DNA of 32,000 nucleotides from Streptosporangiaceae bacterium (GCA_035308365.1 DATGGU010000179.1:3139-35138); one strand, 5' to 3'; counted from the stretch's first letter, positions 5,410 to 30,217 are shown. Numbers and translations: made by a program. The notes: a model not told the origin generated them from the letters alone.

Positions 5410-5814
5410 CTAGGTTTGCGAGCCGGGTAGCTGGCTGGACTCGATGGCGGCGGCGAGCACGGTGGGGTCGCCGGTGCGGATGTAGACCGAGGCGGCCGTG
5501 TCGGTGAACTTGATCACGTGCTCGTCGCCGTTGGCGCAGGCCCGGCCGATGACCTCGGCCACCGGATCGCTGGCCTCCGGCGGGCCGGGAAGCTCCACCG
5601 CCGGCTTGGCCTCGACCGGGGCGGTGGCGGCGGGCATTTCGTCCAGCCGCTTCAGGTAGGCGTCCACCCAGGCGGGTACCGCCTCGGCGCAGCCCCGCCT
5701 GGCCAGCACCCCGGCCGCCATCGGCCCGTGGTTGGACAGGTTGCCGCCCCATTCCGGGCCAGTGCCGTGCAGCCGGATGTAGGCCTCGTCCAGGATCTCG
5801 GTTGCCGTGCTCAC
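5410..5814 (-). CDS. Short protein related to questin oxidase / DUF4243 family, apparently N- and C-terminal segments only
   Basis: MSTATEILDEAYIRLHGTGPEWGGNLSNHGPMAAGVLARRGCAEAVPAWVDAYLKRLDEMP... resembles the questin oxidase N-terminus; ...DPVAEVIGRACANGDEHVIKFTDTAASVYIRTGDPTVLAAA... resembles its C-terminus. The ORF is only 134 aa. Confidence 0.6.
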   Translation of the reverse strand: MSTATEILDEAYIRLHGTGPEWGGNLSNHGPMAAGVLARRGCAEAVPAWVDAYLKRLDEMPAATAPVEAKPAVELPGPPEASDPVAEVIGRACANGDEHVIKFTDTAASVYIRTGDPTVLAAAIESSQLPGSQT

Positions 5815-5844: not shown

Positions 5845-6687
5845 TTAGGAAACCCTGGTGACGCTGCCCGCGACCGCCACCGGCCGCCCGGCGGTGGGGG
5901 CCTTCCTGGTCCGGTAGAGGTACCAGGCAGCGCCGGCGAAGGCCAGCAGGGCGATCCACTCGTTGGTCCGCAGGCCGAGCAGGTGGTGGGAGTAGTCGAT
6001 CCGGACGGTCTGCACGGCGAACATGCCGACCGCGTAGACGGCCAGGTACAGCGCGAACACCCGGTCCCCGCCGAGCGTGAACCGCCGGGCCGCCCAGATC
6101 ACCACGGCGGCCGTCAGCAGGTCCCACAGCGACTGGTACAGGAAGGCCGGCTGGAAGGTCGCGAAGCTCTCGTAGCCGGTCAGCCGGTGCGACGGCCCGA
6201 TCTCCAGCGCCCACGGCAGGGTCGAGGGCCGGCCGTAGAGCTGCTGGTTGAACCAGCTGCTGCAGCTCCCGATGGCCTGGCCGATGGCGATGGCCGGGGC
6301 AGCGGCCCCGGCGACCGGGCCCAGCGGCAGCTTGGCCCGGCGGCAGGCGATCCAGCCGCCCAGGAAGCCGAGGGCCAGCCCGCCGGGCATGCCGAGCCCG
6401 CCGTCCCAGATCTTGAACATGGTGACCCAGTCGTCACGTTTGCCGAAGTAGAGCTGGTAGTCGGTGAGCACGCTGTACAGCCGGGCGCCGATGAGGCCCA
6501 GCGGGACCGCCCAGGCCGCGACGTCGGCCATCACCCCGCGCTGGCCGCCCGCCGCCTGGTACCGCCGGCCGGCCAGCCACACGGCCACGATGACCCCGGC
6601 GACCAGGCACAGCGCGTACGCCCTGACCGGGATTGGGCCGAGCTGCCACACCCCACGAGACGGGCTCGGGATGTACGCGATCGACAT
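5845..6687 (-). CDS. lgt: Prolipoprotein diacylglyceryl transferase (Lgt)-like membrane protein with divergent signature residues
   Basis: MSIAYIPSPSRGVWQLGPIPVRAYALCLVAGVIVAVWLAGRRY...PLGLIGARLYSVLTDYQLYF...FKIWDGGLGMPGG...AIGQAIGSCSSWFNQQLYG...YAVGMFAVQTVRIDYSHHLLGLRTNEW. Located directly after trpA, the conserved actinobacterial lgt position. An alternative start lies at 6699. Confidence 0.85.
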   Translation of the reverse strand: MSIAYIPSPSRGVWQLGPIPVRAYALCLVAGVIVAVWLAGRRYQAAGGQRGVMADVAAWAVPLGLIGARLYSVLTDYQLYFGKRDDWVTMFKIWDGGLGMPGGLALGFLGGWIACRRAKLPLGPVAGAAAPAIAIGQAIGSCSSWFNQQLYGRPSTLPWALEIGPSHRLTGYESFATFQPAFLYQSLWDLLTAAVVIWAARRFTLGGDRVFALYLAVYAVGMFAVQTVRIDYSHHLLGLRTNEWIALLAFAGAAWYLYRTRKAPTAGRPVAVAGSVTRVS

Positions 6688-6727
6688 GGTCAGCCACACT
6701 ACCGGTGATCGGCAGCCGGCATCTCCG

Positions 6728-7546
6728 TCACGAAGAGCTGGCGCGCGCCCTGGGCGAGCGGACGCCCGCGGCCAGCTCCGCCGCCAGGCCGGCCACGGCC
6801 GCGACCCCGGCCTGCTGGTCAGGCGCCTCGAGCAGCCGCTGCACGAACGCGGAGCCGACGATCACGCCGTCGGCGTAGCTGCCCACCGTGGCCGCCTGGG
6901 CGCCGTCCCGCACGCCGAGGCCGACCGCGACCGGCAGGGTGGTGACGTTCCTGATCCGGCCGACCAGCGCCGCCGCCTCGTCGCTCACCGCGTCGCGGAC
7001 CCCGGTCACGCCCATCCGCGAGGCCGCGTAGACGAAGCCCCGGCATGCCGAGGCGATGCGCGCGATCCGCTCATCCGGCGAGCTGACCGCGGCCAGGAAC
7101 ACCGCGTCCAGGTCGTGAGCCTGGGCGGCGGCCAGCCACGGGCCGGCCTCCTCCGGGGGCAGGTCCGGAGTGATCAGCCCCGATCCCCCGGCGGCGGCCA
7201 GGTCGGCGGCGAACGCTTCGACTCCGTACCGGTCCACCGGGTTCCAGTAGGTCATCACCAGGACCGGGACCCCGCCCCCGGCGACCACCTCCACCGTGCG
7301 CAGCACGTCGGCCACCCGGACCCCGCCGGTCAGCGCGCGGTGCACCGCCTCCTGGATGACCGGGCCGTCCATCACCGGGTCGGAGTAGGGCAGGCCAAGC
7401 TCCAGGATGTCGGCGCCCGAGCGGGCCATGGCCAGGGCGGCCTCGATGGCGCCGTCCACCGTGGGGTACCCGGCGGGCAGGTAGCCGATGACCGCCGCCC
7501 GGCCCTCGGCCGCCGCCTTCCCGAACGCGGTCCCGGCCGGGCTCAC
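6728..7546 (-). CDS. trpA: Tryptophan synthase alpha subunit
   Basis: ...[50 protein letters not shown]...; start overlaps the trpB stop (ATGA). Confidence 0.97.
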
Positions 7547-8790
7547 CGGCCGCTCCCGTCGCCGTCACCCGCCAGGCCGAACCAGCGGGCCGCGGTGTCC
7601 ATGTCCTTGTCCCCCCGGCCGGACAGGTTGACCAGCAGCAGGGCGTCCGGGCCGAGCTCGCGGCCCACCTGCAGCGCCCCGGCCAGGGCGTGCGCCGACT
7701 CGAGCGCTGGGATGATCCCCTCGGTCCGGCACAGCAGCGAAAAGGCCGCCATGGTCTGCACGTCGTCGATGGCCCGGTAGCTGGCCCGGCCGGTCTCGTG
7801 CAGCCAGGAGTGCTCGGGGCCGACACCGGGGTAGTCAAGCCCGGCCGAGATCGAATGCGTGGGCAGGGTCTGGCCGTCCTCGTCCTGCAGCAGGTAGGTG
7901 CGCATGCCGTGGATCACCCCGGCCGACCCGGCGACCAGCGTGGCCGAATGCCGCCCGGCCTGCACGCCCTCGCCGCCTGCCTCGCAGCCGATCAGCCGCA
8001 CGTCCTCGTCCGGGATGAACGCGTGGAACGCGCCGATGGCGTTCGAGCCGCCGCCGACGCAGGCGATCACCGCGTCCGGCAGCCGCCCGGTGCGGTCGAG
8101 CACCTGCTGGCGCGCCTCCTGCCCGATGATCCGCTGCAGGTCGCGCACCATCACAGGGAAAGGGTGCGGGCCCATCACCGAGCCGATGCAGTAGTGCGTG
8201 GTCGCGACCGTGGACACCCAGTCACGGAAGGCCTCGTTGATCGCGTCCTTGAGCGTCCGGCTGCCGATGGTGACCGGGACGACCTCGGCGCCGAGCATCC
8301 GCATCCTGGCCACGTTGAGCGCCTGCCGCCGGGTGTCCTCCTCGCCCATGTAGACCACGCAGTCCAGGCCGAGCAGCGCACAGGCGGTGGCGGTCGCCAC
8401 CCCGTGCTGGCCGGCCCCGGTCTCGGCGATCACCCTGGTCTTGCCCATTCGCTTGGTGAGCAGTGCCTGGCCGAGCACGTTGTTGATCTTGTGCGACCCG
8501 GTGTGGGCCAGATCCTCGCGCTTGAGCAGGACCCGGCAGCCGCCGGCCTCGGCGGCGAACCTGGGCGCCTCGGTCAGCGGCGTGGGCCGCCCGGCGTAGT
8601 CGCGCAGCAACCCGGCCAGCCCGGCCTGAAAGGCGGGGTCGGCCTGGGCGCTGGCCCAGGTCTCGGTCAGCTCGGCCAGCGCCGACATCAGCGCCTCGGG
8701 GGCGAACCGCCCCCCGAAGGGCCCGAAGTGCCCGGCCGCGTCGGGCTGGGTCAGCGTGGCCGGCCCGGTTTCCTGGGCACCGTTGCGCAT
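7543..8790 (-). CDS. trpB: Tryptophan synthase beta subunit
   Basis: ...[18 protein letters not shown]...[24 protein letters not shown]...[13 protein letters not shown].... Confidence 0.98.
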
Positions 8791-8803: not shown

Positions 8804-9613
8804 TTAACGCCGGTCACCGCGCAGTGCCGGATGGGAGCCGGCGGTGACGAGATCGGCCACGGCGGCGCGCGGGTCCTTCCCGGTCACCAGGCTCTCCCCG
8901 ACCAGCACCGCGTCGGCGCCGGCCGCCGCATAGGCCAGCAGGTCGTGCGGGCCGCGCACGCCAGATTCGGCGATCTTGATGATGCCGTCCGGGATGAGCG
9001 GGGCGATCCGGGCGAACGTGCTGCGGTCCACCTCGAGCGTGGCCAGGTCCCTGGCGTTGACCCCGATCACCCTGGCGCCGGCGTCGACGGCCCGGTCCAG
9101 CTCTTCCTCGGTGTGCACCTCGACCAGCGGGAGCAGGCCGATCGACACCGCCCGCTCGACCAGCGAGACGAGCGCGTTCTGCTCCAGCACCGAGACCATC
9201 AGCAGGGCCATGTCGGCGCCGTGGGCGCGTGCCTCCCAGAGCTGGTAGGAGCCGACGATGAAGTCCTTGCGCAGCACGGGCGTCCGCACGGCGCTGCGCA
9301 CCGCGTCCAGATCGGCCAGGCTGCCGCCGAACCGTCTGCCCTCGGTCAGCACACTGATCACCCGTGCACCACCGGCCGCGTAGTCCATGGCGAGTGCGGC
9401 CGGGTCGTCGATCGCCGCCATCCGGCCCCTGGATGGGCTGCCCCGCTTCACCTCGGCGATGACGCACACGTCATCGCCGCTCAGCGCGGCCAGCGCATCT
9501 CGCGGTGACGGCGCACGCCGCGCCATCTCCTTCAGCCGGTCGAGCGCGACCTCCCGCTGCCGCTGCTCGAGGTCGGCGCGGACGCCTTCCAGGATGTCAT
9601 CGAGCACGCTCAC
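8804..9613 (-). CDS. trpC: Indole-3-glycerol-phosphate synthase
   Basis: [22 protein letters not shown]...[47 protein letters not shown]...; GTG start overlaps the upstream gene's stop (GTGA). Confidence 0.97.
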
Positions 9614-10431
9614 GCGGTTCCGCTGTCCCCTCGGATCGGATGCCCTGCGTCCCTGATCGTAGCGGGAGCGTTCCGGCCGCCGGCCGCGGGGCCTACCGCC
9701 GCGGCCACAGGGTCCATCACATAGCCGACTCCGCGGACCGTCCGGATCCCGTTGCCCGGGCCGAGTTTCGCCCGCAACTGGGCGACGTAGACGTCCACGA
9801 TCCGGTCGGTGGCCGCGCCGTCCTCGCCCCAGACCGCGCGCCGCAGCGCCTCCCGCCTGACCGCCCGCCCGGCGCTGCGCACCAGGTAGCTGAGCACGTC
9901 AAACTCGGTGCTGGTGAGCGCGAGGTCCACGCCGTCCAGGGTGGCCCGGGCGCGGGCAGGCTCCAGCCGGAGCCGCCCCGCGGTGTGCGTGGCGCCCGGG
10001 TCCGGCGGCGCACCGGCGGCCTGGGCCGCCCGGACCAGGGTCCGCACCCGGGAGACCAGCGTCCGCGGGGCGAACGGGCGGGCCAGGCAGGCATCCTGGC
10101 CGACGCCGATGTCCTTGGGCCGCAGGCCGAGCGCGGCCCGGGGCGCCTCGCCCGCGGTCAGGCAGATCACCCGGGCGCCCGGCCGGCCGCGGACCAGTTT
10201 GCGGATCTCCCTGGCGTCGAGCCCGGGCATGGTCAGGTCGAGCACGACGGCGGCGGCGCGGCTGCCGGTGAGCGCGGCGGCGGTCTGCCCTGGGGTGCTG
10301 ACCGACTGAACCCGCAGCCCCTCCTTGACCAGGTAACGGCGGATGAGCTCGGCCACCGCGGGGTCGTGCTCGGCCACCAGGATCTCGGCTGTGCTCGATT
10401 GGCCGCAAAGACGCCCCGCGGATCCCGTCAC
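9610..10431 (-). CDS. OmpR-type response regulator (receiver plus winged helix) with atypical receiver residues
   Basis: C-terminal DNA-binding domain ...[51 protein letters not shown]...[15 protein letters not shown]...[11 protein letters not shown]; receiver [18 protein letters not shown]...[17 protein letters not shown].... A GTG at 10431 overlaps the upstream stop (GTGA) and is preferred over the track start at 10494. Confidence 0.88.
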
Positions 10432-11156
10432 GGCTCTTCGCGGGGCGCGGCGGCGGACCCGGTCAGATCCTCGCCGCGGTCGAGCGCCTCCCACAGCGCC
10501 GCCGTGTCACCCTCGGGCGGGCTGGCCGGCGTGATCGCCGCCGCGGCTTCCCTGGGCTCGGCCACGCGGCGTTCCGGCTCGGCCACGTCGCGCTGCGGCC
10601 CGGACCGGTCGAACCTGGCCGACATGACCGGCCAGCTCCGGCCACGCCAGATGGTGATGAGACCCATCATGATCACGATGACCGCACCGCTCATCGCGGC
10701 CTGCCGCCAGGCTTGGCCGTCCCATCCGGCACTGCTGACCGTGCCGATCAGCGGCAAGCTGCCGCCGGAGGAATTCCCGCTGATGGCGGAGTTGCCGCCG
10801 GGCACCGAGCCGGCCAGCCCGCCCGGGCCGGCCTGCCCGGCGGCGGCGAGCACGTTGATCGATCCGCCGAGCACCACGGTGGTCCAGGCACCAAGGGCGG
10901 TCATGACCAGCCCGGCCGCCTGGCGGGCCAGGCCCCGGGTCGCGATGACCGCGGCCAGGCAGGCGACCGCGGCGAGCGCGAGCGCCCCGGCGGCCGGCCG
11001 GAGGCTCTGCCCGGACACCAGCAGCGACCCGGACGGCAGCGGCGCCGGGGCCTTGTAATACACCCGGGCCCAGTGCTGGTGGAGGGCGAGCAGCACCAGC
11101 CCGGCGCCCAGGAGGCATGCGAAGATCGCGCCGCCGAACTCCCTGCGCGGCCGCAC
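10428..11156 (-). CDS. Trp biosynthesis-associated membrane protein (Trp_oprn_chp / TIGR02234-like)
   Basis: From the GTG at 11156: MRPRREFGGAIFACLLGAGLVLLALHQHWARVYYKAPAPLPSGSLLVSGQSLRPAAGALALAAVACLAAVIATRGLARQAAGLVMTALGAWTTVVL...; hydrophobic helices with a long charged C-terminal tail; sits between hisI and trpC. The track ORF extends back through hisI, which I judge spurious. Confidence 0.82.
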   Translation of the reverse strand: MRPRREFGGAIFACLLGAGLVLLALHQHWARVYYKAPAPLPSGSLLVSGQSLRPAAGALALAAVACLAAVIATRGLARQAAGLVMTALGAWTTVVLGGSINVLAAAGQAGPGGLAGSVPGGNSAISGNSSGGSLPLIGTVSSAGWDGQAWRQAAMSGAVIVIMMGLITIWRGRSWPVMSARFDRSGPQRDVAEPERRVAEPREAAAAITPASPPEGDTAALWEALDRGEDLTGSAAAPREEP

Positions 11157-11161
11157 GCCGG

Positions 11162-11536
11162 CTACATTCCCCGCGCGGCCAGCGGGAGCACGCCGGTGTC
11201 GAAGCAGGTCCGGTCGCCGGTGTGGCAGGCGCCGCCGGCCTGGTCCACCTTGACCAGCACGGTGTCGCCGTCGCAGTCCAGCGCCACAGATATCACCCGC
11301 TGCCCGTTCCCGGAGGTGGCGCCCTTGACCCAGTACTCCTGCCGGCTGCGCGACCAGTAGGTGCACAGCCCGGTGGTCAGGGTGCGGTGCAGCGCCTCGT
11401 CGTCCATCCAGGCGAGCATCAGCACCTCGCCGGTGTCGTACTGCTGCGCGATGGCGGGAAACAGCCCGGCCGCATCCCGCTTGAGCCGCGCGGCGATCTC
11501 GGGGTCCAGCCGTGACGGGCGAATGACGCTGGTCAC
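11162..11536 (-). CDS. hisI: Phosphoribosyl-AMP cyclohydrolase
   Basis: ...[85 protein letters not shown].... Confidence 0.97.
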
Positions 11537-11666
11537 GTGTGCTCACTCCTCTGCCGTTTGAAAAAGCATAGGACCTGAACGATGCCCGCCATCCCGGTGG
11601 TCACCGCGGACCGGTCGCGGGGGGCGCCCATTCCCCTGGCGGGCGCCGGCCCCTACTCTCTGTGCA

Positions 11667-12314
11667 ATGACGTACTCCCGGGATGAGCGACTCGCGCTGT
11701 GCGCCGCGCTCGATGAGGCCGGCCCGGACGCGCCAACCCTGTGTGATGGCTGGGCCACCCGTGACCTCGCCGCCCATCTGGTGCTGCGCGAACACCGCCC
11801 GGACGCCGCCGCTGGAATGCTGGGCGGCCCGCTGGCCAAGCACACCCAGCGGGTCCAGCAGGGGATCGCCGAGCGGACCCCCTACCCGCGGCTGGTCCAG
11901 ATCGTCCGGGACGGGCCGCCGAGGCTGTCGTTCTTCGGGCTGCCCGGCATGGACGCGCGGGCCAACCTGGTCGAGTACTTCGTGCACCACGAGGACGTGC
12001 GGCGCGGCGCGCCCGGCTGGGAACCGCGCGAACTCGGCGCGGGCCTGGCCGAGGCGCTGTGGTCCCGGCTGGGCATGACCCGGCTGATCCTGCGCCGGGT
12101 GCCGGTCGGCATCGAGTTCGCCAGGGACGACGTGGCGGACGGCCAGACGCGGCACCGGATGACGATCAAGACGGCCACCCCGGTGGTCACCGTGATCGGG
12201 CCGCCCGCCGAGCTGACCCTGTGGGCCCTGGGCCGCACCGGCGCCGCCCACGTCCGGCTGGACGGCGCCGAATCGGCCATCCAGAAGGTGACCGCGTCCA
12301 ACTGGCGGCTATAG
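11667..12314 (+). CDS. TIGR03085 / maleylpyruvate isomerase-like (DinB/MDMPI N-terminal) family protein
   Basis: MTYSRDERLALCAALDEAGPDAPTLCDGWATRDLAAHLVLREHRPDAAAGML...GMDARANLVEYFVHHEDVRRGAPGWEPREL.... Confidence 0.85.
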   Translation: MTYSRDERLALCAALDEAGPDAPTLCDGWATRDLAAHLVLREHRPDAAAGMLGGPLAKHTQRVQQGIAERTPYPRLVQIVRDGPPRLSFFGLPGMDARANLVEYFVHHEDVRRGAPGWEPRELGAGLAEALWSRLGMTRLILRRVPVGIEFARDDVADGQTRHRMTIKTATPVVTVIGPPAELTLWALGRTGAAHVRLDGAESAIQKVTASNWRL

Positions 12315-12325
12315 GGCTGGCGCCC

Positions 12326-13645
12326 TCATGGGCTCAGCCGGTGGATGTCGCGCGGGAACAGGGTGGCGCTGCGGACGTTGGCGGCGCCGGTGAGCCGGGA
12401 GGTCCAGCGTTCCAGGCCCATCGCGAAGCCGCCGTGCGGTGGCATGCCCGCGGCGAAGACGCCCAGGTAGCCGGCGTAGGGCCCGGGGTCCTCGCCGCGC
12501 TGGGCGAGCGCGGCCAGGTAGTCCTCGTGCCGGTGCAGCCGCTGGCCGCCGGTGACGATCTCCAGGCCGCGCAGCAGCAGGTCGAAGCTGTTGGAGTAGC
12601 CGGGGCGGCCGGGCTCGGGGTGGGTGTAGAACGGGCGCTTGGCCATCGGGTAGCCGGTGACGTAGAGGAACTCCGAGCCGTGCTCACGGACCGCCCAGTC
12701 CGACAGCCAGCGTTCGTGCGCCGGGGCCAGGTCCGGCTCGCCGCGCGGGTCTTCGCCCGTTTCCCTGGCCATCAGCTCCTGGGCCTCGGCGATGTGGATC
12801 TCGGGGATCCGGGCCGGCACCTCGGGCAGCTTGGCGCCGAGCAGTTCGATCGCGGCGCTGGCCCGGTCAGAGATGGTGGCCACCATGCCCGCCGTGACCT
12901 CGGTGAGCACCGCCATCACGTCGTGGTGGTCCTCGATGAACCCGAACTCGGCGTCCAGGCTGAGATACTGAGCCAGGTGGCGGGCGGTGTCGTGCGGCTC
13001 GGCCCGGAAGGCGGGGGCGGTCTCGTAGACCCGCTCGAACACGCCCACCATGGCCTGCTTGTAGAACTGTGGCGACTGGGCCAGGTAGGCCCGCTGGCCG
13101 AAGTAGTCGATGCCGAACACGTTCGCCCCGGACTCGGTCGCCGACCGCACGATCTTGGGTGTGCTTATCTCGGTGAAGCCGAGCCCGTCCAGCGTGGCCC
13201 GGAACCCGGCGACGGCGGCCGCGCTGATCTCGAACGGCGCGCGCAGCAGCGGGTGCCGCAGGCTGGCCGGAGCGTTGTCCAGGATGGTGGGCAGGCTGGC
13301 GGTGACCGTGGGCCGGTACAGGTCGAACGGCGGCCGGGCCGCCGGGCCCGACAGCGGCGTGATCACCGGCCGGACCAGCTCCGCCCCGCCGGGCGCCTGG
13401 TCGCTGGCGGCCACCGTGCCGGTGACGGACAGGACGGTTTCCTCGGCGAACCCGGCCGCCGCCGCTATCTCGTCCGGAGCGGCCAGGACCACCTGGGCCA
13501 GGCCGGACCGGTCGCGGATGACCAGGAACGTCATGGACTTGAGCGGCCGGCGGCGGTGCAGCCAGCCAGCGATGCGGATCCGCTCACCGGCGTGCGCGGG
13601 CACGTCGGCGGCCATGACACGGACAGCAGGGACACGAGAGATCAT
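12326..13645 (-). CDS. aspS: Aspartyl-tRNA synthetase, archaeal/AspRS2 type (possibly non-discriminating)
   Basis: From the ATG at 13645 (GGAG SD 4 nt upstream): MISRVPAVRVMAADVPAHAGERIRIAGWLHRRRPLKSMTFLVIRDRSGLAQVVLA...PQFYKQAMVGVFERVYETAPAFRAEPHDTARHLAQYLSLDAEFGF...GMPPHGGFAMGLERWTSRLTGAANVRSATLFPRDIHRLSP. It is 439 aa and lacks the GAD insertion expected in typical bacterial AspRS (~580-600 aa). Confidence 0.92.
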   Translation of the reverse strand: MISRVPAVRVMAADVPAHAGERIRIAGWLHRRRPLKSMTFLVIRDRSGLAQVVLAAPDEIAAAAGFAEETVLSVTGTVAASDQAPGGAELVRPVITPLSGPAARPPFDLYRPTVTASLPTILDNAPASLRHPLLRAPFEISAAAVAGFRATLDGLGFTEISTPKIVRSATESGANVFGIDYFGQRAYLAQSPQFYKQAMVGVFERVYETAPAFRAEPHDTARHLAQYLSLDAEFGFIEDHHDVMAVLTEVTAGMVATISDRASAAIELLGAKLPEVPARIPEIHIAEAQELMARETGEDPRGEPDLAPAHERWLSDWAVREHGSEFLYVTGYPMAKRPFYTHPEPGRPGYSNSFDLLLRGLEIVTGGQRLHRHEDYLAALAQRGEDPGPYAGYLGVFAAGMPPHGGFAMGLERWTSRLTGAANVRSATLFPRDIHRLSP

Positions 13646-13935
13646 CGCACTCCTTCCCGGGATGCCTGATCCCCTCGGAGTGCGGGCGAGAAGGGAGACT
13701 CGCTGTGCCACCGCACCTTCGCCGCCGCCTGGCTGGCAAGCGGCCTCTGCGGGCCCGGTGACGGGGGCTAACCGGCGGGGCATGGGGCAGGCCGCTGGCC
13801 GCGGCCGCCGTTCCTCCCCGCACTCGGGAGGGTCTTCGCCACAGGGCGCGAGTCCGCCTTCACAGCTCCCGGCGGCTCTCTGTGTTCGGATGAACAGTGC
13901 TCGCGTGCTCCTGCGCTACTCGTCTCCGTCAGCGC
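13646..13935 (-). promoter_or_regulatory. T-box riboswitch leader of aspS, predicted translational (SD-sequestering) type
   Basis: On the minus strand: loop-E partner AGTA (13920-13917) and GAA (13837-13835); candidate specifier GAC (13834-13832); GGAG/CTCC closing pair (13927-13924 / 13830-13827); AGAGAG-CCGCC-GGGAGCTGTGAA-GGCGG distal element; T-box helix GCGG-[TGGCACA]-GCGAG-TCTCCCTT-CTCGC-CCGC (13714-13682); mutually exclusive SD hairpin CGCACTCC (13684-13677) / GGAGTGCG (13653-13646) directly before the ATG. Confidence 0.85.
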
Positions 13936-13974
13936 GTTACCATCCAGGATACTGGCACGGGAGGAGAAGCTTTC

Positions 13975-14760
13975 ATGCACGCACTCGGCGTTGACATCGG
14001 CGGTACCGGGATCAAGGCCGCTCCGGTGGACGTGGCGGCGGGCAAGCTGCTGGAGGCGCGGCAGAAGATCGCCACCCCGCACCCGGCGACCCCGCAGGCG
14101 GTCGCGGACGTGGTGACCCAGCTGGTCAAGGCGTTCGGCTGGTCCGGGCCGGTGGGCATCACGTTCCCCGGCGTGGTCGTGGACGGCGTCACCCGGACCG
14201 CGGCCAACGTGGACCACGGCTGGATCGGCCTGGACGCGCGGTCGCTGCTGGCCAAGGCCACCGGCCAGGACGTCAGCGTGATCAACGACGCGGACGCCGC
14301 CGGGATGGCGGAGATGGAGTTCGGCGCGGGCAAGAACGTGGCCAGCACCGTGCTCATGCTGACACTGGGCACCGGGATCGGCAGTGCGCTGTTCATCGAC
14401 GGCATCCTGGTGCCGAACACCGAGTTCGGCCACATCGAGATCCGGGGCAAGGACGCGGAGAAGCGGGCGTCCGAGATCGTCCGGGAGACGCACGACCTGA
14501 GCTGGGGCAAGTGGGCGGGCCGGGTGGATGAGTACCTGCGGCACATGGAGGCGCTGCTGTCGCCCAGCCTGTTCATCATCGGCGGCGGGATCAGCAAGGA
14601 GTCGAAGAAGTTCTTTCCGCTGCTGACCGGGATCAAGGCGCGGATCGAGCCCGCGCACCTGCTCAACGATGCCGGGATCGTCGGCGCGGCCATGCACGCG
14701 CATCCCGGATACACCCGGTACAAGCGCGGCGGCGGGAACGAGACCGCCAGCGCGGGCTGA
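13975..14760 (+). CDS. ppgK: Polyphosphate glucokinase (ROK family)
   Basis: MHALGVDIGGTGIKAAPVDVAAGKLLEARQKIATPHPATPQAVADVV...VGITFPGVVVDGVTRTAANVDHGWIG...LMLTLGTGIGSALFIDGILVPNTEFGHIEIRGKDAEKRAS...; RBS gggaggagaa. Confidence 0.93.
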   Translation: MHALGVDIGGTGIKAAPVDVAAGKLLEARQKIATPHPATPQAVADVVTQLVKAFGWSGPVGITFPGVVVDGVTRTAANVDHGWIGLDARSLLAKATGQDVSVINDADAAGMAEMEFGAGKNVASTVLMLTLGTGIGSALFIDGILVPNTEFGHIEIRGKDAEKRASEIVRETHDLSWGKWAGRVDEYLRHMEALLSPSLFIIGGGISKESKKFFPLLTGIKARIEPAHLLNDAGIVGAAMHAHPGYTRYKRGGGNETASAG

Positions 14761-19902: not shown

Positions 19903-20055
19903 TGGCTCAGCCTATCGGGCCACCGCGCAGCGTGGCGGCTGTGCATCACGGCGGGACACCCTGATGCGAGCGTACGGCCTGCGTGGCACTCTTATCGGAC
20001 CAGCGTCCGGCATACCGGGGCCAGTGTCCGGACCACAGACGAAAGTGAACCACCG

Positions 20056-21774
20056 GTGACCCACCAGCACGACACCAGCAGCCAGGCCGACCTCGCCTTC
20101 ACCGAACTGGCCACCGCTTACCTCGACGACACCGGCGAGCGGCTTCCCGAGTTCGCCACCGCCCTCGGCGATCACCGCTTCGACGCGCATCTGCCGGTGT
20201 TCACCCAGGCCGCGCTCGACGCCGAGCGGCAGGCCCTGGAGGGTTTCACGGCCAGGCTGGCGGCCATCGACCACGCCACGCTGAGCCCGGAGAACCAGGT
20301 GGACGCCGCCATGCTCGGCACCGCGCTGAAACGGCGGATGTACGAGCGGGAGGCGATGCGGGAACACACCTGGAACCCGCTGGTCGCCAACCCGGGCCGG
20401 GCCATCCGGCTGCTGCTGGCCAGGGACTTCGCCCCACTGCCCGAGAGGCTGGCATCGGTGGCCGGGCGGCTCGCCGAGGTGCCCGGGGCGCTGGCCGGTG
20501 CCCGCAACCTGCTCGGGCCCATGCCGCGGGTGCACCTGGAGACCGCCATCGGCCAGTTCACCGGCACGATTTCACTGGTGACCAAAGAGATCGACCAGGC
20601 GCTCGAGGACGCACAGCACCGTTCCGGCGCGACGCCAGCCCTACGGCAGTGTGCGGCCCAGATCGGCGCCGTGCGGCCGGCCGCTCTGGAAGCACTGGAC
20701 GAGCATCGCGCCTGGCTGTCCGCCAAGCTGGACGAGGGCAATGCGAACGGCGGGTTCGCCGACCCGCGGACCGGCCCCGAACGATTCGCCCGCAAGCTGT
20801 CGCTCACCCTGGACGCCGAGGCGGACGACGGCGCGATCCTGGCCAGGGCGCTCGCCGACCTGGACCGGGTGAGCGAGGAAATGGCCGGGCTGGCGGCCGG
20901 GCTGGCAGGGCCGGCCAGCGGCACCGACCGCGCTGCGGTGGTGCGGCAGGTGCTCGGCTCGCTGGCCGCCGACGCGCCGGACGACAAGACCATCCTGGAG
21001 CTGTGCCGCGGCGCGCTGGCCCAGCAGGCCGCCTTCGTCACCGCGCACAAGCTGGTGACCGTCCACGACGACCCGGTCGACCTGATCGAGATGCCGGAGA
21101 TCGACCGCGGCGTCGCGGTCGCCTACTGCGACTCACCGGGCCCGCTGGAGCCCCGGGGCATGCCGACGTTCGTCGCGGTCTCCCCCACCCCGGCGGCCTG
21201 GCCGGCCGAACGGGTGGCCTCGTTCTACCGCGAGTACAACCGGCACATGGTGCACAACCTGATGATCCACGAGGCGATGCCCGGCCACTTCGTGCAGCTG
21301 GGGCACTCCCGGCGGTTCACCGGCACGCCCACCCCGCTGCGCTCGGCGCTGCGGTCGGGGTCGTTCGTCGAAGGCTGGGCGGTCTACGCCGAAGAGCTCA
21401 TGGCCATCCACGAGTACCCGGGCCTGGGCGACCCTCGCAAGGTGCGGATGCAGCAGCTGAAGATGCAGCTCCGCATGATCATGAACGCGATCCTCGACGC
21501 CGGGGTGCACACCCAGGGGATGACCGAGGCCGAGGCGATGAGCCTGATGACCGGCCGCGGGTTCCAGGAAGAAGGCGAGGCGGCCGGCAAGTGGCGCCGC
21601 GCGCAGCTCACCTCCACCCAGCTGTCCACCTACTACGTCGGGTATACCGAGGTCGCCGACCTCGCCGCCGAGCTGAAGGCGGCCAGCCCCGGGCAGCCCG
21701 AACGGGAGCTGCACGACCGCATGCTCGCCCACGGCACACCTCCGGTCCGGCGCCTGCGCACCCTGGTCAGCTAG
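20056..21774 (+). CDS. DUF885 domain-containing protein
   Basis: From the GTG at 20056: MTHQHDTSSQADLAFTELATAYLDDTGERLPEFATALGDHRFDAHLP...NLMIHEAMPGHFVQLGHSRRF...FVEGWAVYAEELM...QQLKMQLRMIMNAILDAGVHTQGMTEAEAMSLM.... HEAMPGH and EGWAxYxE motifs suggest a zinc-peptidase-like fold. Confidence 0.88.
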   Translation: MTHQHDTSSQADLAFTELATAYLDDTGERLPEFATALGDHRFDAHLPVFTQAALDAERQALEGFTARLAAIDHATLSPENQVDAAMLGTALKRRMYEREAMREHTWNPLVANPGRAIRLLLARDFAPLPERLASVAGRLAEVPGALAGARNLLGPMPRVHLETAIGQFTGTISLVTKEIDQALEDAQHRSGATPALRQCAAQIGAVRPAALEALDEHRAWLSAKLDEGNANGGFADPRTGPERFARKLSLTLDAEADDGAILARALADLDRVSEEMAGLAAGLAGPASGTDRAAVVRQVLGSLAADAPDDKTILELCRGALAQQAAFVTAHKLVTVHDDPVDLIEMPEIDRGVAVAYCDSPGPLEPRGMPTFVAVSPTPAAWPAERVASFYREYNRHMVHNLMIHEAMPGHFVQLGHSRRFTGTPTPLRSALRSGSFVEGWAVYAEELMAIHEYPGLGDPRKVRMQQLKMQLRMIMNAILDAGVHTQGMTEAEAMSLMTGRGFQEEGEAAGKWRRAQLTSTQLSTYYVGYTEVADLAAELKAASPGQPERELHDRMLAHGTPPVRRLRTLVS

Positions 21775-22402
21775 CGCCGCTCTCGCCCTCGAGGGCCAGC
21801 TCCGCGCGCTTGCGCTCGGCCGGCTGGCTGGCCAGCTCGATGGCGCCCACGGTGAACGCGGCGAACAGCGGCCAGAAGGCGAGCGCGCCACGCCCGGCCA
21901 GGGCGAGCGGCTCGTGCAACTGGGCCCCGACCGGGCTGGAGGCGAGCTGGGACCGGAACCCGGCGAGTCCCTGCTGCTGCCCGGTCCACATGGCCAGCAC
22001 GGCCGCGGCCACACCACCGAGGACGAGGCCGGTCACCGCTACCGCGCCGTGCCTGCGGACCACGATGAAGTAACCGGCCACCCCGCACAGCAGCCCGGCC
22101 GCCGCGGTCAGCAGGCAGAACCACCCTTCGGCGGCGATGAACGCGCTGGTCTCCGGGTTCGCGACGTAGGCGACGCCACGGCTCTGCACGACGAGCAGCG
22201 CCCTGGGCGCGACCGCCGACCAGAGGAACCCGGCGAGCAGGCCTGCCGCGGCGCTCGCCGCCGCGGTGGCGAGCAGGACGGCAACCGCGCCGCCGAACCT
22301 GGCCGCCGCGCCCATTCGCCGGGCGGCCTGGGCCGGACCGGGAGCAGTGGCGGGCACAGGCCCGCTGCGCGGTGCGTCGGGATACTGGCCGGGTTGCGTC
22401 AT
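21767..22402 (-). CDS. DUF2567-like integral membrane protein
   Basis: From the ATG at 22402: MTQPGQYPDAPRS...AAGLLAGFLWSAVAPRALLVVQSRGVAYVANPETSAFIAAEGWFCLLTAAAGLLCGVAGYFIVVRRHG..., a repeated-helix protein with the APxAxxxV...SxxFIAAxGWF pattern. Confidence 0.7.
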   Translation of the reverse strand: MTQPGQYPDAPRSGPVPATAPGPAQAARRMGAAARFGGAVAVLLATAAASAAAGLLAGFLWSAVAPRALLVVQSRGVAYVANPETSAFIAAEGWFCLLTAAAGLLCGVAGYFIVVRRHGAVAVTGLVLGGVAAAVLAMWTGQQQGLAGFRSQLASSPVGAQLHEPLALAGRGALAFWPLFAAFTVGAIELASQPAERKRAELALEGESGAS

Positions 22403-22530
22403 TCTGGGCAGCAGGGTACGCGACACCGGCGATCTGAATGCAAGAATCTGCCGCCCGCACCCTGCGGCTGTACCGGAGGCCGGACCGCAATGCGCTCCAC
22501 GGCGGGCGCGACTTGTGCTAGATAAGAGAT

Positions 22531-22570
22531 TGGTTAACCACACATGTGCGCCCGGCGAGAATGGTTAACC
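22531..22570. promoter_or_regulatory. Clustered palindromes upstream of the ABC transporter operon (candidate operators)
   Basis: TGGTTAACCA (22531-22540, perfect 10-bp palindrome), CACATGTG (22541-22548, perfect 8-bp palindrome), and a second TGGTTAACC at 22562-22570. The two TGGTTAACC starts are 31 bp apart. Confidence 0.45.
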
Positions 22571-22587: not shown

Positions 22588-23592
22588 ATGATCGAGGCTC
22601 GTGTTCTGACCAAACGGTACGGCCCGAAGGTGGCGGTAAACCAGCTCTCGTTCACCGTCGAGCCTGGCAAGGTCACCGGATTTCTCGGCCCGAACGGGGC
22701 GGGCAAGTCCACCACGATGCGGCTCATACTGGGCCTGGACCGCCCTGACGGCGGCACCGCCACCATCGACGGCAAGCACTACCGCGAGCTCGCCAGCCCG
22801 CTGCGTACGGTGGGAGCCCTGCTGGAGGCCCGTTCGGTGCACACCGGCCGGACGGCCTTCGACCACCTGCTCTTCCTGGCCCAGACCCAGGGGCTGCCAC
22901 GGCAGCGGGTGCGGCAGGTGATCGACCTGGTCGGGCTCGGCGCGGTGGCGAACAAGCGGACCGGCGGATTCTCGCTGGGCATGAGCCAGCGCCTGGGCAT
23001 CGCCGCGGCGCTGCTCGGCGACCCGCAGGTGTTCCTGCTGGACGAGCCGGTGAACGGCCTCGACCCCGAGGGCATCCTGTGGATCCGCAACCTGATGAAG
23101 CGGCTGGCCGCCGAGGGGCGCACCGTGTTCGTCTCCAGCCACCTGATGAACGAGATGGCCGTCACCGCTGATCACCTGATCGTGATCGGCCGGGGCGAGC
23201 TTATCGCGGACTGCAGCACGCAGGAGTTCATCGGCAGCCGTACCCGGCAGTCGGTGCTCGTCCGCACGCCCGACCCGGACCGGCTGGCCAGCGCGATCAC
23301 CGCCGAGGGCGGGCACGTCTCGGTGGCGCCTTCGGACGGGAACGCCATAGCGGCCGCCGCGGGCGGGCAGCCGGCCGCCGCCCTCACCGTCACCGGCATC
23401 CCCGCGCCGCGGATCGGCGAACTCGCGGCCGCCACCTCGGTCGTGCTGCACGAGCTCACCCCGCAGACGGGGTCCCTGGAGGAAGCGTTCATGGAAATGA
23501 CCGCCGACAGCGTCGAGTACGGCCAGCACCAGGCCCCCGCCCCGTCACCACCCAGTACGGCCGCCGTGCCGGGCGAACGGAGTGGCTCATGA
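22588..23592 (+). CDS. ABC transporter ATP-binding protein
   Basis: MIEARVLTKRYGPKVAVNQLSFTVEPGKVTGFLGPNGAGKSTTMRLILGLDRPDGG...FSLGMSQRLGIAAALLGDPQVFLLDEPVNGLDPEGI...; Walker A, signature and Walker B present. Confidence 0.96.
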   Translation: MIEARVLTKRYGPKVAVNQLSFTVEPGKVTGFLGPNGAGKSTTMRLILGLDRPDGGTATIDGKHYRELASPLRTVGALLEARSVHTGRTAFDHLLFLAQTQGLPRQRVRQVIDLVGLGAVANKRTGGFSLGMSQRLGIAAALLGDPQVFLLDEPVNGLDPEGILWIRNLMKRLAAEGRTVFVSSHLMNEMAVTADHLIVIGRGELIADCSTQEFIGSRTRQSVLVRTPDPDRLASAITAEGGHVSVAPSDGNAIAAAAGGQPAAALTVTGIPAPRIGELAAATSVVLHELTPQTGSLEEAFMEMTADSVEYGQHQAPAPSPPSTAAVPGERSGS

Positions 23593-24425
23593 CCGCCGCG
23601 ACGCCCCCGGTGCAGATGACCCCGCTGCCGCCGCCCGGGCACCAGGGGTTCGGCCGCCTGCTGCAAAGCGAATGGACGAAGCTCCGCTCGGTTCGCTCCA
23701 CCATCTGGTCGCTGGTCCTGCTGGTGATCCTCACCCTCGGGCTGACCGGCCTGATCGCCGGCATCACCGAGGCGCAGTGGCACAAGATCGGCGCTGCGTC
23801 ACGGGCCACCGTCATCGGCGACCCGGTCGCCACGATCCTCGGCGCCTCGGTGGAGTTCGGCCAGCTCACCATCGTCGTGCTCGGCATCCTGGTGATCTCG
23901 TCCGAGTACTCGACCGGCGCGATCCGGGCCTCCTTGCTGGCCGTCCCCCGCCGCCTGCACATGCTGACCGCCAAGGCGATCACGTTCACCGCGCTGATCT
24001 TCGTGCTGGCCGAGGTCGTCTGCTTCGCCGCGTTCTTCCTCGGCTCGGCGATCCTGCACAGCCACGTCCCGGTCTCGCTGAGCGGCCCGCACGTGGCCCG
24101 TGCCGTCGTCGGCGCCGGCCTCTACCTGACCGTCCTGGGGTTGTTCTCGATGGCCATCGGCGGCCTGATCCGGCACACCGCGGGCGCGATCGCCGGCGTC
24201 ATCGCCTTCGTCATCGTCCTGGAGCCGCTGTCCACCCTGATCCCGGGCACCTGGGGCCACCACATCCACGACTACCTGCCCACCTCGGCGGGCCGCCTGG
24301 TCTACCAGATCCGCCCGGTCTCCGGCCAGGTCCTGCCAGCCTGGGGCGGCTTCGCCGTCTTCTGCGGCTGGACCGCCGCCCTGCTCATCGCCTGGGCAGT
24401 GACCCTCAAGCTGCGGGACGCATAG
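23589..24425 (+). CDS. ABC transporter permease (ABC-2 type)
   Basis: MTAATPPVQMTPLPPPGHQGFGRLLQSEWTKLRSVRSTIWSLVLLVILTLGLTGL...; multiple TM segments, 4-nt overlap with the ATPase gene. Confidence 0.9.
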   Translation: MTAATPPVQMTPLPPPGHQGFGRLLQSEWTKLRSVRSTIWSLVLLVILTLGLTGLIAGITEAQWHKIGAASRATVIGDPVATILGASVEFGQLTIVVLGILVISSEYSTGAIRASLLAVPRRLHMLTAKAITFTALIFVLAEVVCFAAFFLGSAILHSHVPVSLSGPHVARAVVGAGLYLTVLGLFSMAIGGLIRHTAGAIAGVIAFVIVLEPLSTLIPGTWGHHIHDYLPTSAGRLVYQIRPVSGQVLPAWGGFAVFCGWTAALLIAWAVTLKLRDA

Positions 24426-29536: not shown

Positions 29537-30217
29537 TCAGTCGGCCGCTCCGGGCTGGGCGGCCTGGTTCGCCGGGCCGGCCTGGCTGGCGCGGTTGGCC
29601 TGGCTGGCGTGGCTGGTCTTGTCGTGCGGGCCGGGCGGCTGCGGCGGCCCGGCCGGCTCGCGCGTGCCATCGATCCGCAGCCCGCGGATGGCCAGCAGGA
29701 CGGCCAGCACGCCACCGCAGACGATGGCCGAATCGGCCAGGTTGAACACCGGCCAGTGTGGCAGCTCTATCCAGTCCACCACCGAGCCCCGCATCGGCCC
29801 GGGCGCGCGGAACAGCCGGTCCGACAGGTTGCCGGTGGCGCCGCCGAGCAGCAGCCCGAGCGTGATCGCCCAGGGCAGGCTGCGCAGCTTCCGCGCGGTC
29901 CGCAGGATGAAGACGATCACGCCGGCCGCGATCGCGGTGAACACGATCGTCATCGAGGTCCCGATGCTGAACGCCGCGCCGCTGTTGCGCAGCAGCCGGA
30001 TCGTCAGCAGGCCGCCGAGCAGCCGGATCGGGGCATGGCCGGCCAGGTCGGCCACCACGATGGCCTTCGAGATGAGGTCGGCGGCCAGCACGAACACGGC
30101 AACGCCGGCCAGGACGGTGACGTACAGGCGGCCCGGCCTGGAACGCTCCGGACCGCCGGGCTCGCCGGGCTCGCCGGGCTGCCCCGCGCCTTGCATGTCC
30201 GCGCCGGTGTCAGTCAT
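29537..30217 (-). CDS. lspA: Lipoprotein signal peptidase (signal peptidase II)
   Basis: From the ATG at 30217: ...[26 protein letters not shown]...[17 protein letters not shown]...[52 protein letters not shown]...; both catalytic-Asp motifs intact. Confidence 0.93.

Follow-up and report, generated by a model that had tools for sequence, protein, structure and literature searches.

In the biogenesis of bacterial lipoproteins, the committed step is catalysed by Lgt, the phosphatidylglycerol:prolipoprotein diacylglyceryl transferase (EC 2.5.1.145), which moves a diacylglyceryl group of phosphatidylglycerol onto the lipobox cysteine. The enzyme is being studied as a target for antibiotics, and two of its arginines, R143 and R239, are regarded as invariant and catalytic. 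In E. coli Lgt, Y26, H103, R143, N146, G154 and R239 are listed as absolutely required (PMC13251419); R143 is the proposed catalytic centre, R239 is called the family's best-conserved residue, and the substitutions R239A/E/H/K/Q and E243A/Q/R fail to complement (PMC4728403). A sequence-only reading of the locus described here had noted Arg143 and Arg239 as reported to be essential.

Lgt proteins that depart from this residue set have been described before. A 2026 survey counted about 1,300 genomes with two lgt copies, and recognized a subgroup of Lgt without R143 and R239 in Deinococci, Acidimicrobiales, Anaerolineales, Acidobacteriales as well as Myxococcales, for which its authors suggested another acyl substrate or another mechanism; Lgts of monoderm bacteria fail to complement E. 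coli (PMC13251419). In Mycolicibacterium smegmatis, the second Lgt homologue MSMEG_5408 carries Y26H and N146C (PMC11741404, PMC13251419); its activity is presumed to be low.

The gene analysed here lies in a 32-kb stretch of DNA from a Streptosporangiaceae bacterium, which we call the window (Table 1). Like canonical Lgt (E. coli 5azb/5azc; Mycobacterium, Streptomyces, Actinomadura), it matches PF01790 over its full length, lies downstream of trpA, and shares a predicted seven-helix fold together with Y26, G98/G99, G104, G142, N149, G154, Y235 and R246; its identity with the Actinomadura and Streptomyces proteins is 52-57%. Unlike canonical Lgt, it is without R143, G145, N146, E151, E202, R239 and E243 and falls below the NCBIfam equivalog cut-offs, and its dN/dS is about four times higher than that of canonical same-locus relatives. 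The absence of both arginines, replaced here by S and M, is shared with the subgroup of PMC13251419, but that subgroup comes from other lineages and is described from alignment only, and the window Lgt is set apart from it, as described, by being nested in the canonical actinobacterial trpA-linked clade. Since the loss is recent within the actinobacterial clade and same-locus intermediates are still living, its origin is independent of, and convergent with, that of the published subgroup. With MSMEG_5408, the window Lgt has in common that it is an actinobacterial homologue with altered essential residues. However, MSMEG_5408 is an extra copy beside the canonical trpA-linked MSMEG_3222 and keeps R143 and R239 as far as reported, whereas in the window the trpA-linked copy itself is degenerate, with Y26 kept and both arginines lost. 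Of the 150 cluster representatives closest to the window Lgt, about 10 full-length proteins likewise have no R143 or no R239, so degenerate Lgts are a known and recurrent minority. What is new is that the degenerate gene is the canonical-locus orthologue of an actinomycete, that it lost these residues recently and separately from the published subgroup, and that every intermediate state survives in close relatives.

Table 1. Positions in the window of lgt, its altered sites and the genes discussed in the text
Feature	Coordinates	Strand	Details
134-aa ORF	5410-5814	(-)	30 bp downstream of lgt
Lgt-family CDS, 280 aa	5845..6687	(-)	ATG at 6687; stop codon 5845-5847
Degenerate head-domain motif, GMFAVQTVRID	5995..6027	(-)	R239M, E243Q; R246 kept
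Codon CAG, Q185	6133..6135	(-)	E202Q (buried H-bond network), from alignment with E. coli
Degenerate signature motif, GSCSSWFNQQLYG (G-S-C-S-S-W-F-N-Q-Q-L-Y-G)	6232..6270	(-)	R143S, G145S, N146S, E151Q
Pro101	6385..6387	(-)	Site of E. coli H103 (HGGL motif); W in Streptomyces and Actinomadura
trpA	6728-7546	(-)	Directly upstream of lgt, 40-bp gap
trpB	7543-8790	(-)	Upstream of trpA, same strand
OmpR-type response regulator gene	9610-10494	(-)	Response_reg and Trans_reg_C; inside the trp operon
trp-operon membrane protein gene	10428-11156	(-)	Frame of ORF 10428..11546; PF09534 in relatives
203-aa ORF	10507-11118		Probably not the real gene
DUF885 gene	19951-21774	(+)	
ORF without Pfam match	21767-22543	(-)	Between the DUF885 gene and the ABC ATPase gene
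ORF without Pfam match	23589-24425	(+)	Probably the permease partner of the ABC ATPase
lspA (signal peptidase II), intact	about 29537-30196	(-)	NSGAAF, GNLSDR and FNLADS motifs

An in-frame GTG at 6699 extends the minus-strand ORF (5845..6699) by 4 aa relative to the ATG at 6687; the ATG is the start in gene-caller records and in homologues, and the resulting 280 aa matches the length of the closest homologues. With a GC3 of 0.94, lgt has the codon-position GC of a real gene. PF01790 (Pfam LGT) spans the whole product (E 2.3e-49, profile positions 3-239 of 240) and passes its gathering cut-off of 24.9 with 168.3 bits. The curated NCBIfam equivalog TIGR00544, which NCBI uses to name Lgt, scored 111.3 bits, below its cut-off of 118.9, as did the NCBIfam model NF009611 with 274.5 bits against 636, and the NCBI label for near relatives is only 'family protein'. 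An AF2 model built with 66 homologues as input (pLDDT 74, pTM 0.75) has confident transmembrane helices and low confidence in the arm and head regions. Comparison of such a model with E. coli Lgt had been proposed from the sequence, and 5azb, the E. coli enzyme, was its sole significant PDB match (E 3.3e-07, TM 0.59); the window Lgt is thus predicted by the model to keep the seven-helix transmembrane Lgt fold.

Residue numbers follow E. coli Lgt and were taken from MAFFT alignments that included it, while the pairing with 5azb comes from HMMER, which placed GSCSSWFNQQLYG opposite GRLGNFINGELWG. From the canonical signature GRxGNxxNxExxG, the window motif keeps G142, N149 and G154 but has lost R143, G145, N146 and E151. 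Both degenerate motifs had been read correctly in the sequence-only reading, at approximate but overlapping coordinates (they are encoded at 6270-6232 and 6027-5995), and the substitutions that it listed (R143S, N146S, E151Q, R239M and E243Q) were reproduced by MAFFT alignment with E. coli Lgt. Beyond that list, the MAFFT alignment added H103P, D129G and E202Q. Residues retained in the window Lgt are Y26, R73, G98, G99, G104, G142, N149, G154, Y235 and R246, and the strings RAYAL, GLIGARLY, GGLGMPGG and HHLLGLRTNEW, named earlier as intact, are all found in the product. In TM6 and the head domain, R239M and E243Q break up the R239-E243-R246 hydrogen-bond network, leaving R246 alone. These results support the idea of a selective loss of charged and polar residues from the catalytic pocket, with the predicted fold and many other conserved residues kept. 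At site 103, the window Lgt has neither H nor an aromatic residue (Y, W, F), but Pro. This proline is common to the whole uncultured lineage, and 15 of the 150 cluster representatives combine it with a fully canonical residue set; because it occurs in such otherwise canonical Lgts, we rejected P103 as a mark of inactivity and gave it low weight.

The nucleotide changes behind the substitutions are small. The window codons for positions 143, 145, 146 and 151 (AGC, AGC, AGC and CAG) are each one base away from CGC, GGC, AAC and GAG in relatives, and at 239 and 243 the window has ATG and CAG where canonical relatives have AGG/CGG and GAG. Single-base changes cover every step: CGC to AGC, GGC to AGC, AAC to AGC, GAG to CAG three times, and AGG to ATG.

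Ten contigs, assembled independently from JGI, NCBI and Logan samples, carry the identical 280-aa protein, with the trpA-lgt order in six of the six places shown, so the substitutions are not read errors. A return of the canonical residues on resequencing, which the sequence-only reading had allowed for, is excluded by these contigs. We give practically no credence to a sequencing, assembly or frame artefact behind the substitutions, given that the samples and assemblers were independent, that codon-position GC fits a real gene, and that relatives carry graded intermediates.

The gene order of the window runs gltB, MarR, YceI, the 134-aa ORF, lgt, trpA, trpB, trpC, continues with the response regulator, the trp-operon membrane protein, hisI, several genes and hisF/A/H/B/C/D, and ends with DUF885, the ABC transporter, dnaE, rluD, lspA, a dksA-like gene and ileS. 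The trpB-trpA pair is probably co-transcribed with lgt. A scan of species-representative genomes returned at least 80 loci, and in most of those listed trpB-trpA lies upstream of the Lgt homologue, so the window gene is a syntenic orthologue of canonical actinobacterial Lgt and no extra copy. A neofunctionalized paralogue, one of the options raised from the sequence, was therefore rejected: the trpB-trpA-lgt synteny and the neighbours YceI, MarR and gltB match those of canonical relatives, and the closest same-locus relatives show intermediate states. The best species representative among the matches listed, a Streptosporangiaceae MAG, has 77% identity, the window's own species being absent from the scan. 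All close relatives are uncultured, either 'Streptosporangiaceae bacterium' MAGs or soil contigs, and the nearest cultured canonical Lgts, from Actinomadura and Thermomonospora, are about 52% identical.

Several features of the neighbourhood vary among these loci. The 134-aa ORF (GC3 0.91, without Pfam match) is found only in the nearest relatives of the window (L001-L006), and in L007 and others YceI directly follows lgt. In L087, a locus with a fully degenerate Lgt, an Eco57I-type and BsuBI/PstI-type restriction-modification pair (11815-14312 of that locus) lies downstream of lgt in place of YceI-MarR-gltB, which points to an insertion or a rearrangement immediately behind lgt. The response regulator gene sits between the genes for the trp-operon membrane protein and trpC, overlaps the trpC start and has no partner kinase nearby. 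As in the window, it is present in the degenerate-class loci L007, L010, L012, L087, L089 and L093, and it is absent from the canonical-class L091 and from L013, L014, L019 and L034. For the membrane protein gene, codon-position GC and the gene calls of L001 favour the frame given in Table 1 over the 203-aa ORF. The ORFs without Pfam match at 21767-22543 and 23589-24425 both have a good coding signal.

Alignment of orthologues at the trpA-lgt locus, another comparison that had been proposed from the sequence, revealed a nested series. All 68 Streptomyces-type sequences carry W103, D129, R143, G145, N146, E151, E202, Y235, R239, E243 and R246, and every member of the uncultured lineage has P103 and G129. 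Within the uncultured lineage and at the same locus, 33 sequences are fully canonical (including L008, L009, L011 and L091), 33 are intermediate, with only R239M/L/V/T and E243Q (including L010, L012 and L089; 14 of them have F or C in place of Y235), and 30 are fully degenerate, being also without R143 (S, C or N) and E151 (Q), with G145S and N146S/T frequent (including the window, L007 and L087). In a neighbour-joining tree with the key columns masked, the fully degenerate class is nested inside the R239M/E243Q class, which in turn adjoins the canonical class; the series thus leads from canonical proteins through R239M/E243Q to proteins that have also lost R143, E151 and N146. The arginine and its glutamate partner are usually lost as a pair. 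Separate sublineages carry R239S/E243Q (L014, L019), R143C/S/N and E151Q with R239 or K239 kept (L013, L034), E151Q/R239G/E243Q (L015, L036), or R143V (the P0144 family). The loss in the uncultured lineage is stepwise, with parallel losses in other sublineages, and more than 100 distinct degenerate sequences keep the gene intact at its locus.

In two sublineages, lgt follows gltB-gltD instead of lying between trpA and gltB (L015, L036, L094, L095, L096 and L097). A GNAT acetyltransferase gene occupies the old lgt position in L096 and L097, and since lgt is missing from the trpA-gltB interval of these loci, the one behind gltD is the same single copy, moved to a new place. The E151Q/R239G/E243Q class found after gltB-gltD (L015, L036, L094, L095) was also considered as a hidden second Lgt of the window genome. 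It was rejected, as a half-degenerate genome has no lgt after gltD, and the window's gltB shares only 76-78% identity with its counterparts on those contigs, which places them in other lineages. In L093 (ENA contig_19532, 1.88 Mb), the gene calls break up many genes (hisF, trpA, YceI, MarR, gltB and gltD) into pieces, a pattern typical of indel errors in long-read assembly that makes this contig unfit for pseudogene calls.

To describe selection on the locus, dN/dS was calculated by the Nei-Gojobori method in each class, for lgt, trpA and trpB. Canonical relatives gave 0.09-0.10 for lgt (trpA 0.15-0.19, trpB 0.08-0.10), the R239M/E243Q class 0.20-0.36 (trpA 0.19-0.23, trpB 0.15-0.20), and the fully degenerate class, which includes the window, 0.35-0.39 (trpA 0.20-0.37, trpB 0.18-0.24). 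The lgt value thus rises about fourfold, from about 0.09 in canonical to about 0.37 in fully degenerate proteins, with a small change in trpA and trpB. At a dS of about 0.4 in the degenerate class, it stays far below 1, and no frameshift or stop codon was found in lgt of the window or of about 100 sequences (about 30 fully and more than 60 partly degenerate). A dN/dS of about 0.37 indicates that constraint on lgt is relaxed, yet that the gene is not a pseudogene. The relaxation is unevenly spread: 93 alignment columns are invariant in canonical Lgts, and about 70 of them are still invariant in the degenerate class, while the most variable of the 93 are E202 (rank 1 of 257), N146 (rank 10) and R239 (rank 14), with R143, N149, G145 and E243 likewise variable. 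Y26, R73, G99, G104, G142, G154 and R246 are fixed in the degenerate class, S143 occurs in 23 of 30 fully degenerate sequences, Q151 in nearly all, and S145 is fairly constant. The relaxation is centred on the buried hydrogen-bond network, which is the catalytic centre according to Mao et al. (PMC4728403). The features of a pseudoenzyme are observed together here: the fold is retained, the catalytic residues are lost, and purifying selection persists.

No second Lgt homologue was found in the 32-kb window, and the related 13-21-kb loci held at most one homologue each. Among the best 120 matches per search, none of the long contigs with a degenerate Lgt was seen to carry a further Lgt-family protein, and among the matches listed in the species-representative scan, where the window's species is absent, no genome has two Lgt loci. 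The next enzyme of the pathway is intact in the window, as had been noted from the sequence: its LspA aligns with P. aeruginosa LspA 5dir (E 2.9e-14) and keeps both catalytic Asp motifs, and the catalytic dyad is present in 120 of 121 sequences (the window LspA and its best 120 homologues). Signal peptidase II is kept in genomes with a degenerate trpA-linked Lgt. A fully degenerate Lgt other than that of the window, P0006, shares its 95,156-bp JGI contig with the intact LspA P0485, and two further LspA homologues come from contigs of 160,394 and 66,083 bp, sizes that match contigs with R239M/E243Q-class Lgts. The substrates of LspA are diacylglyceryl-modified precursors, so a diacylglyceryl transferase of some kind should be active in these cells. 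No lipobox protein is encoded in the 32-kb window; a single lipobox candidate is encoded in a related locus, whose genome is without R143/E151 but has R239/E243.

Our preferred reading, held tentatively at a probability of about 0.48, is that the window encodes a catalytically disabled Lgt kept for another role, while lipidation is carried out by another Lgt encoded outside the window. The proposed inactivity is extrapolated from E. coli point mutants, and the second Lgt and the residual role are inferred as well. The canonical phosphatidylglycerol:prolipoprotein diacylglyceryl transfer chemistry would have been lost from the trpA-linked orthologue, as suggested by that mutagenesis, by the drift at the former catalytic sites and by the rise in dN/dS. 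R143 and R239, which in canonical Lgt hold and activate the C3-O-phosphate ester of phosphatidylglycerol, are now uncharged residues, and their acidic and amide partners E151, E202, E243 and N146 are replaced likewise. The seven-helix fold, the glycine-rich arm-2 region, Y26, Y235 and R246 are preserved. As the protein is still under selection, the disabled Lgt is most likely still a membrane-inserted protein that binds lipid, prolipoprotein or both, its role being altered or non-catalytic, and the diacylglyceryl transfer needed by the intact LspA would be supplied by the other Lgt. Redundancy would be expected to give losses that recur in sister sublineages with different patterns, as seen here, and this favours a disabled Lgt with an active one elsewhere. 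Against this stand the lack of a second Lgt in the window and in the related 13-21-kb loci, and the retention of the gene, intact and with dN/dS well below 1, in more than 100 distinct sequences, which is not obviously the fate of an enzyme that is dead and fully redundant.

The main alternative, which we consider unlikely but worth weighing, is that the window Lgt is the sole Lgt and still lipidates without R143 and R239, by a different mechanism or with a donor head group that needs no arginine clamp, binding through R246, Y26, Y235 and a new Ser/Gln-lined pocket. No second Lgt was found in the window or the related loci. Two fully degenerate genomes have an intact, conserved LspA, so some diacylglyceryl transferase must act in them, and the gene has stayed at its ancestral locus, with many cleft residues invariant and dN/dS at about 0.37. 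Y26 and R246 are fixed and Y235 is present in the window Lgt, though it varies in the intermediate class. The replacements conserve shape (three of them E to Q) and are partly fixed, above all at 143 and 151; the three Glu-to-Gln changes, isosteric and with hydrogen bonding kept, together with the fairly constant S143 and S145, could represent a remodelled working pocket. This explanation has already been put forward for Lgts without R143 and R239 in other phyla (PMC13251419), and a different lipid preference was suggested for the second M. smegmatis homologue (PMC11741404). However, no new fixed residue set has emerged: 146, 202 and 239 are among the most variable positions of the protein, which looks like release from constraint and not like a new active site, different sublineages lost different residue subsets, and whole-gene constraint is down about fourfold from that of canonical relatives. 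Any phospholipid donor would moreover still offer a phosphate to bind, and a non-phosphate donor would be without a good leaving group. That this protein is the organism's only Lgt and attaches diacylglycerol with both catalytic arginines and the buried acidic network gone, in which case the accepted mechanism would not be universal, is rather unlikely. We regard it as improbable that Lgt activity has become dispensable in the lineage and that the gene is slowly decaying, kept so far only through chance or through its coupling, polar or translational, to the trp operon. Viable lgt mutants of M. smegmatis (PMC11741404), the raised dN/dS, the drifting catalytic sites and the repeated independent losses agree with such decay; reading frames free of frameshifts and stops in the window copy and in the fully and partly degenerate sequences, a dN/dS of 0.35-0.39 at this dS, and the persistence of about 70 canonical-invariant columns do not. 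LspA and its catalytic dyad are also retained, which would be pointless without diacylglyceryl-modified substrates.

The canonical, R239M/E243Q and fully neutralized orthologues at one locus form a natural mutational series for dissecting the mechanism of Lgt, and since every member of this series comes from uncultured soil bacteria, such work must be heterologous. If a second Lgt exists, the window gene would be a documented Lgt-derived membrane pseudoenzyme. If there is none, the accepted Lgt mechanism or donor specificity would not be universal, and a different catalytic arrangement or lipid donor would be at work.
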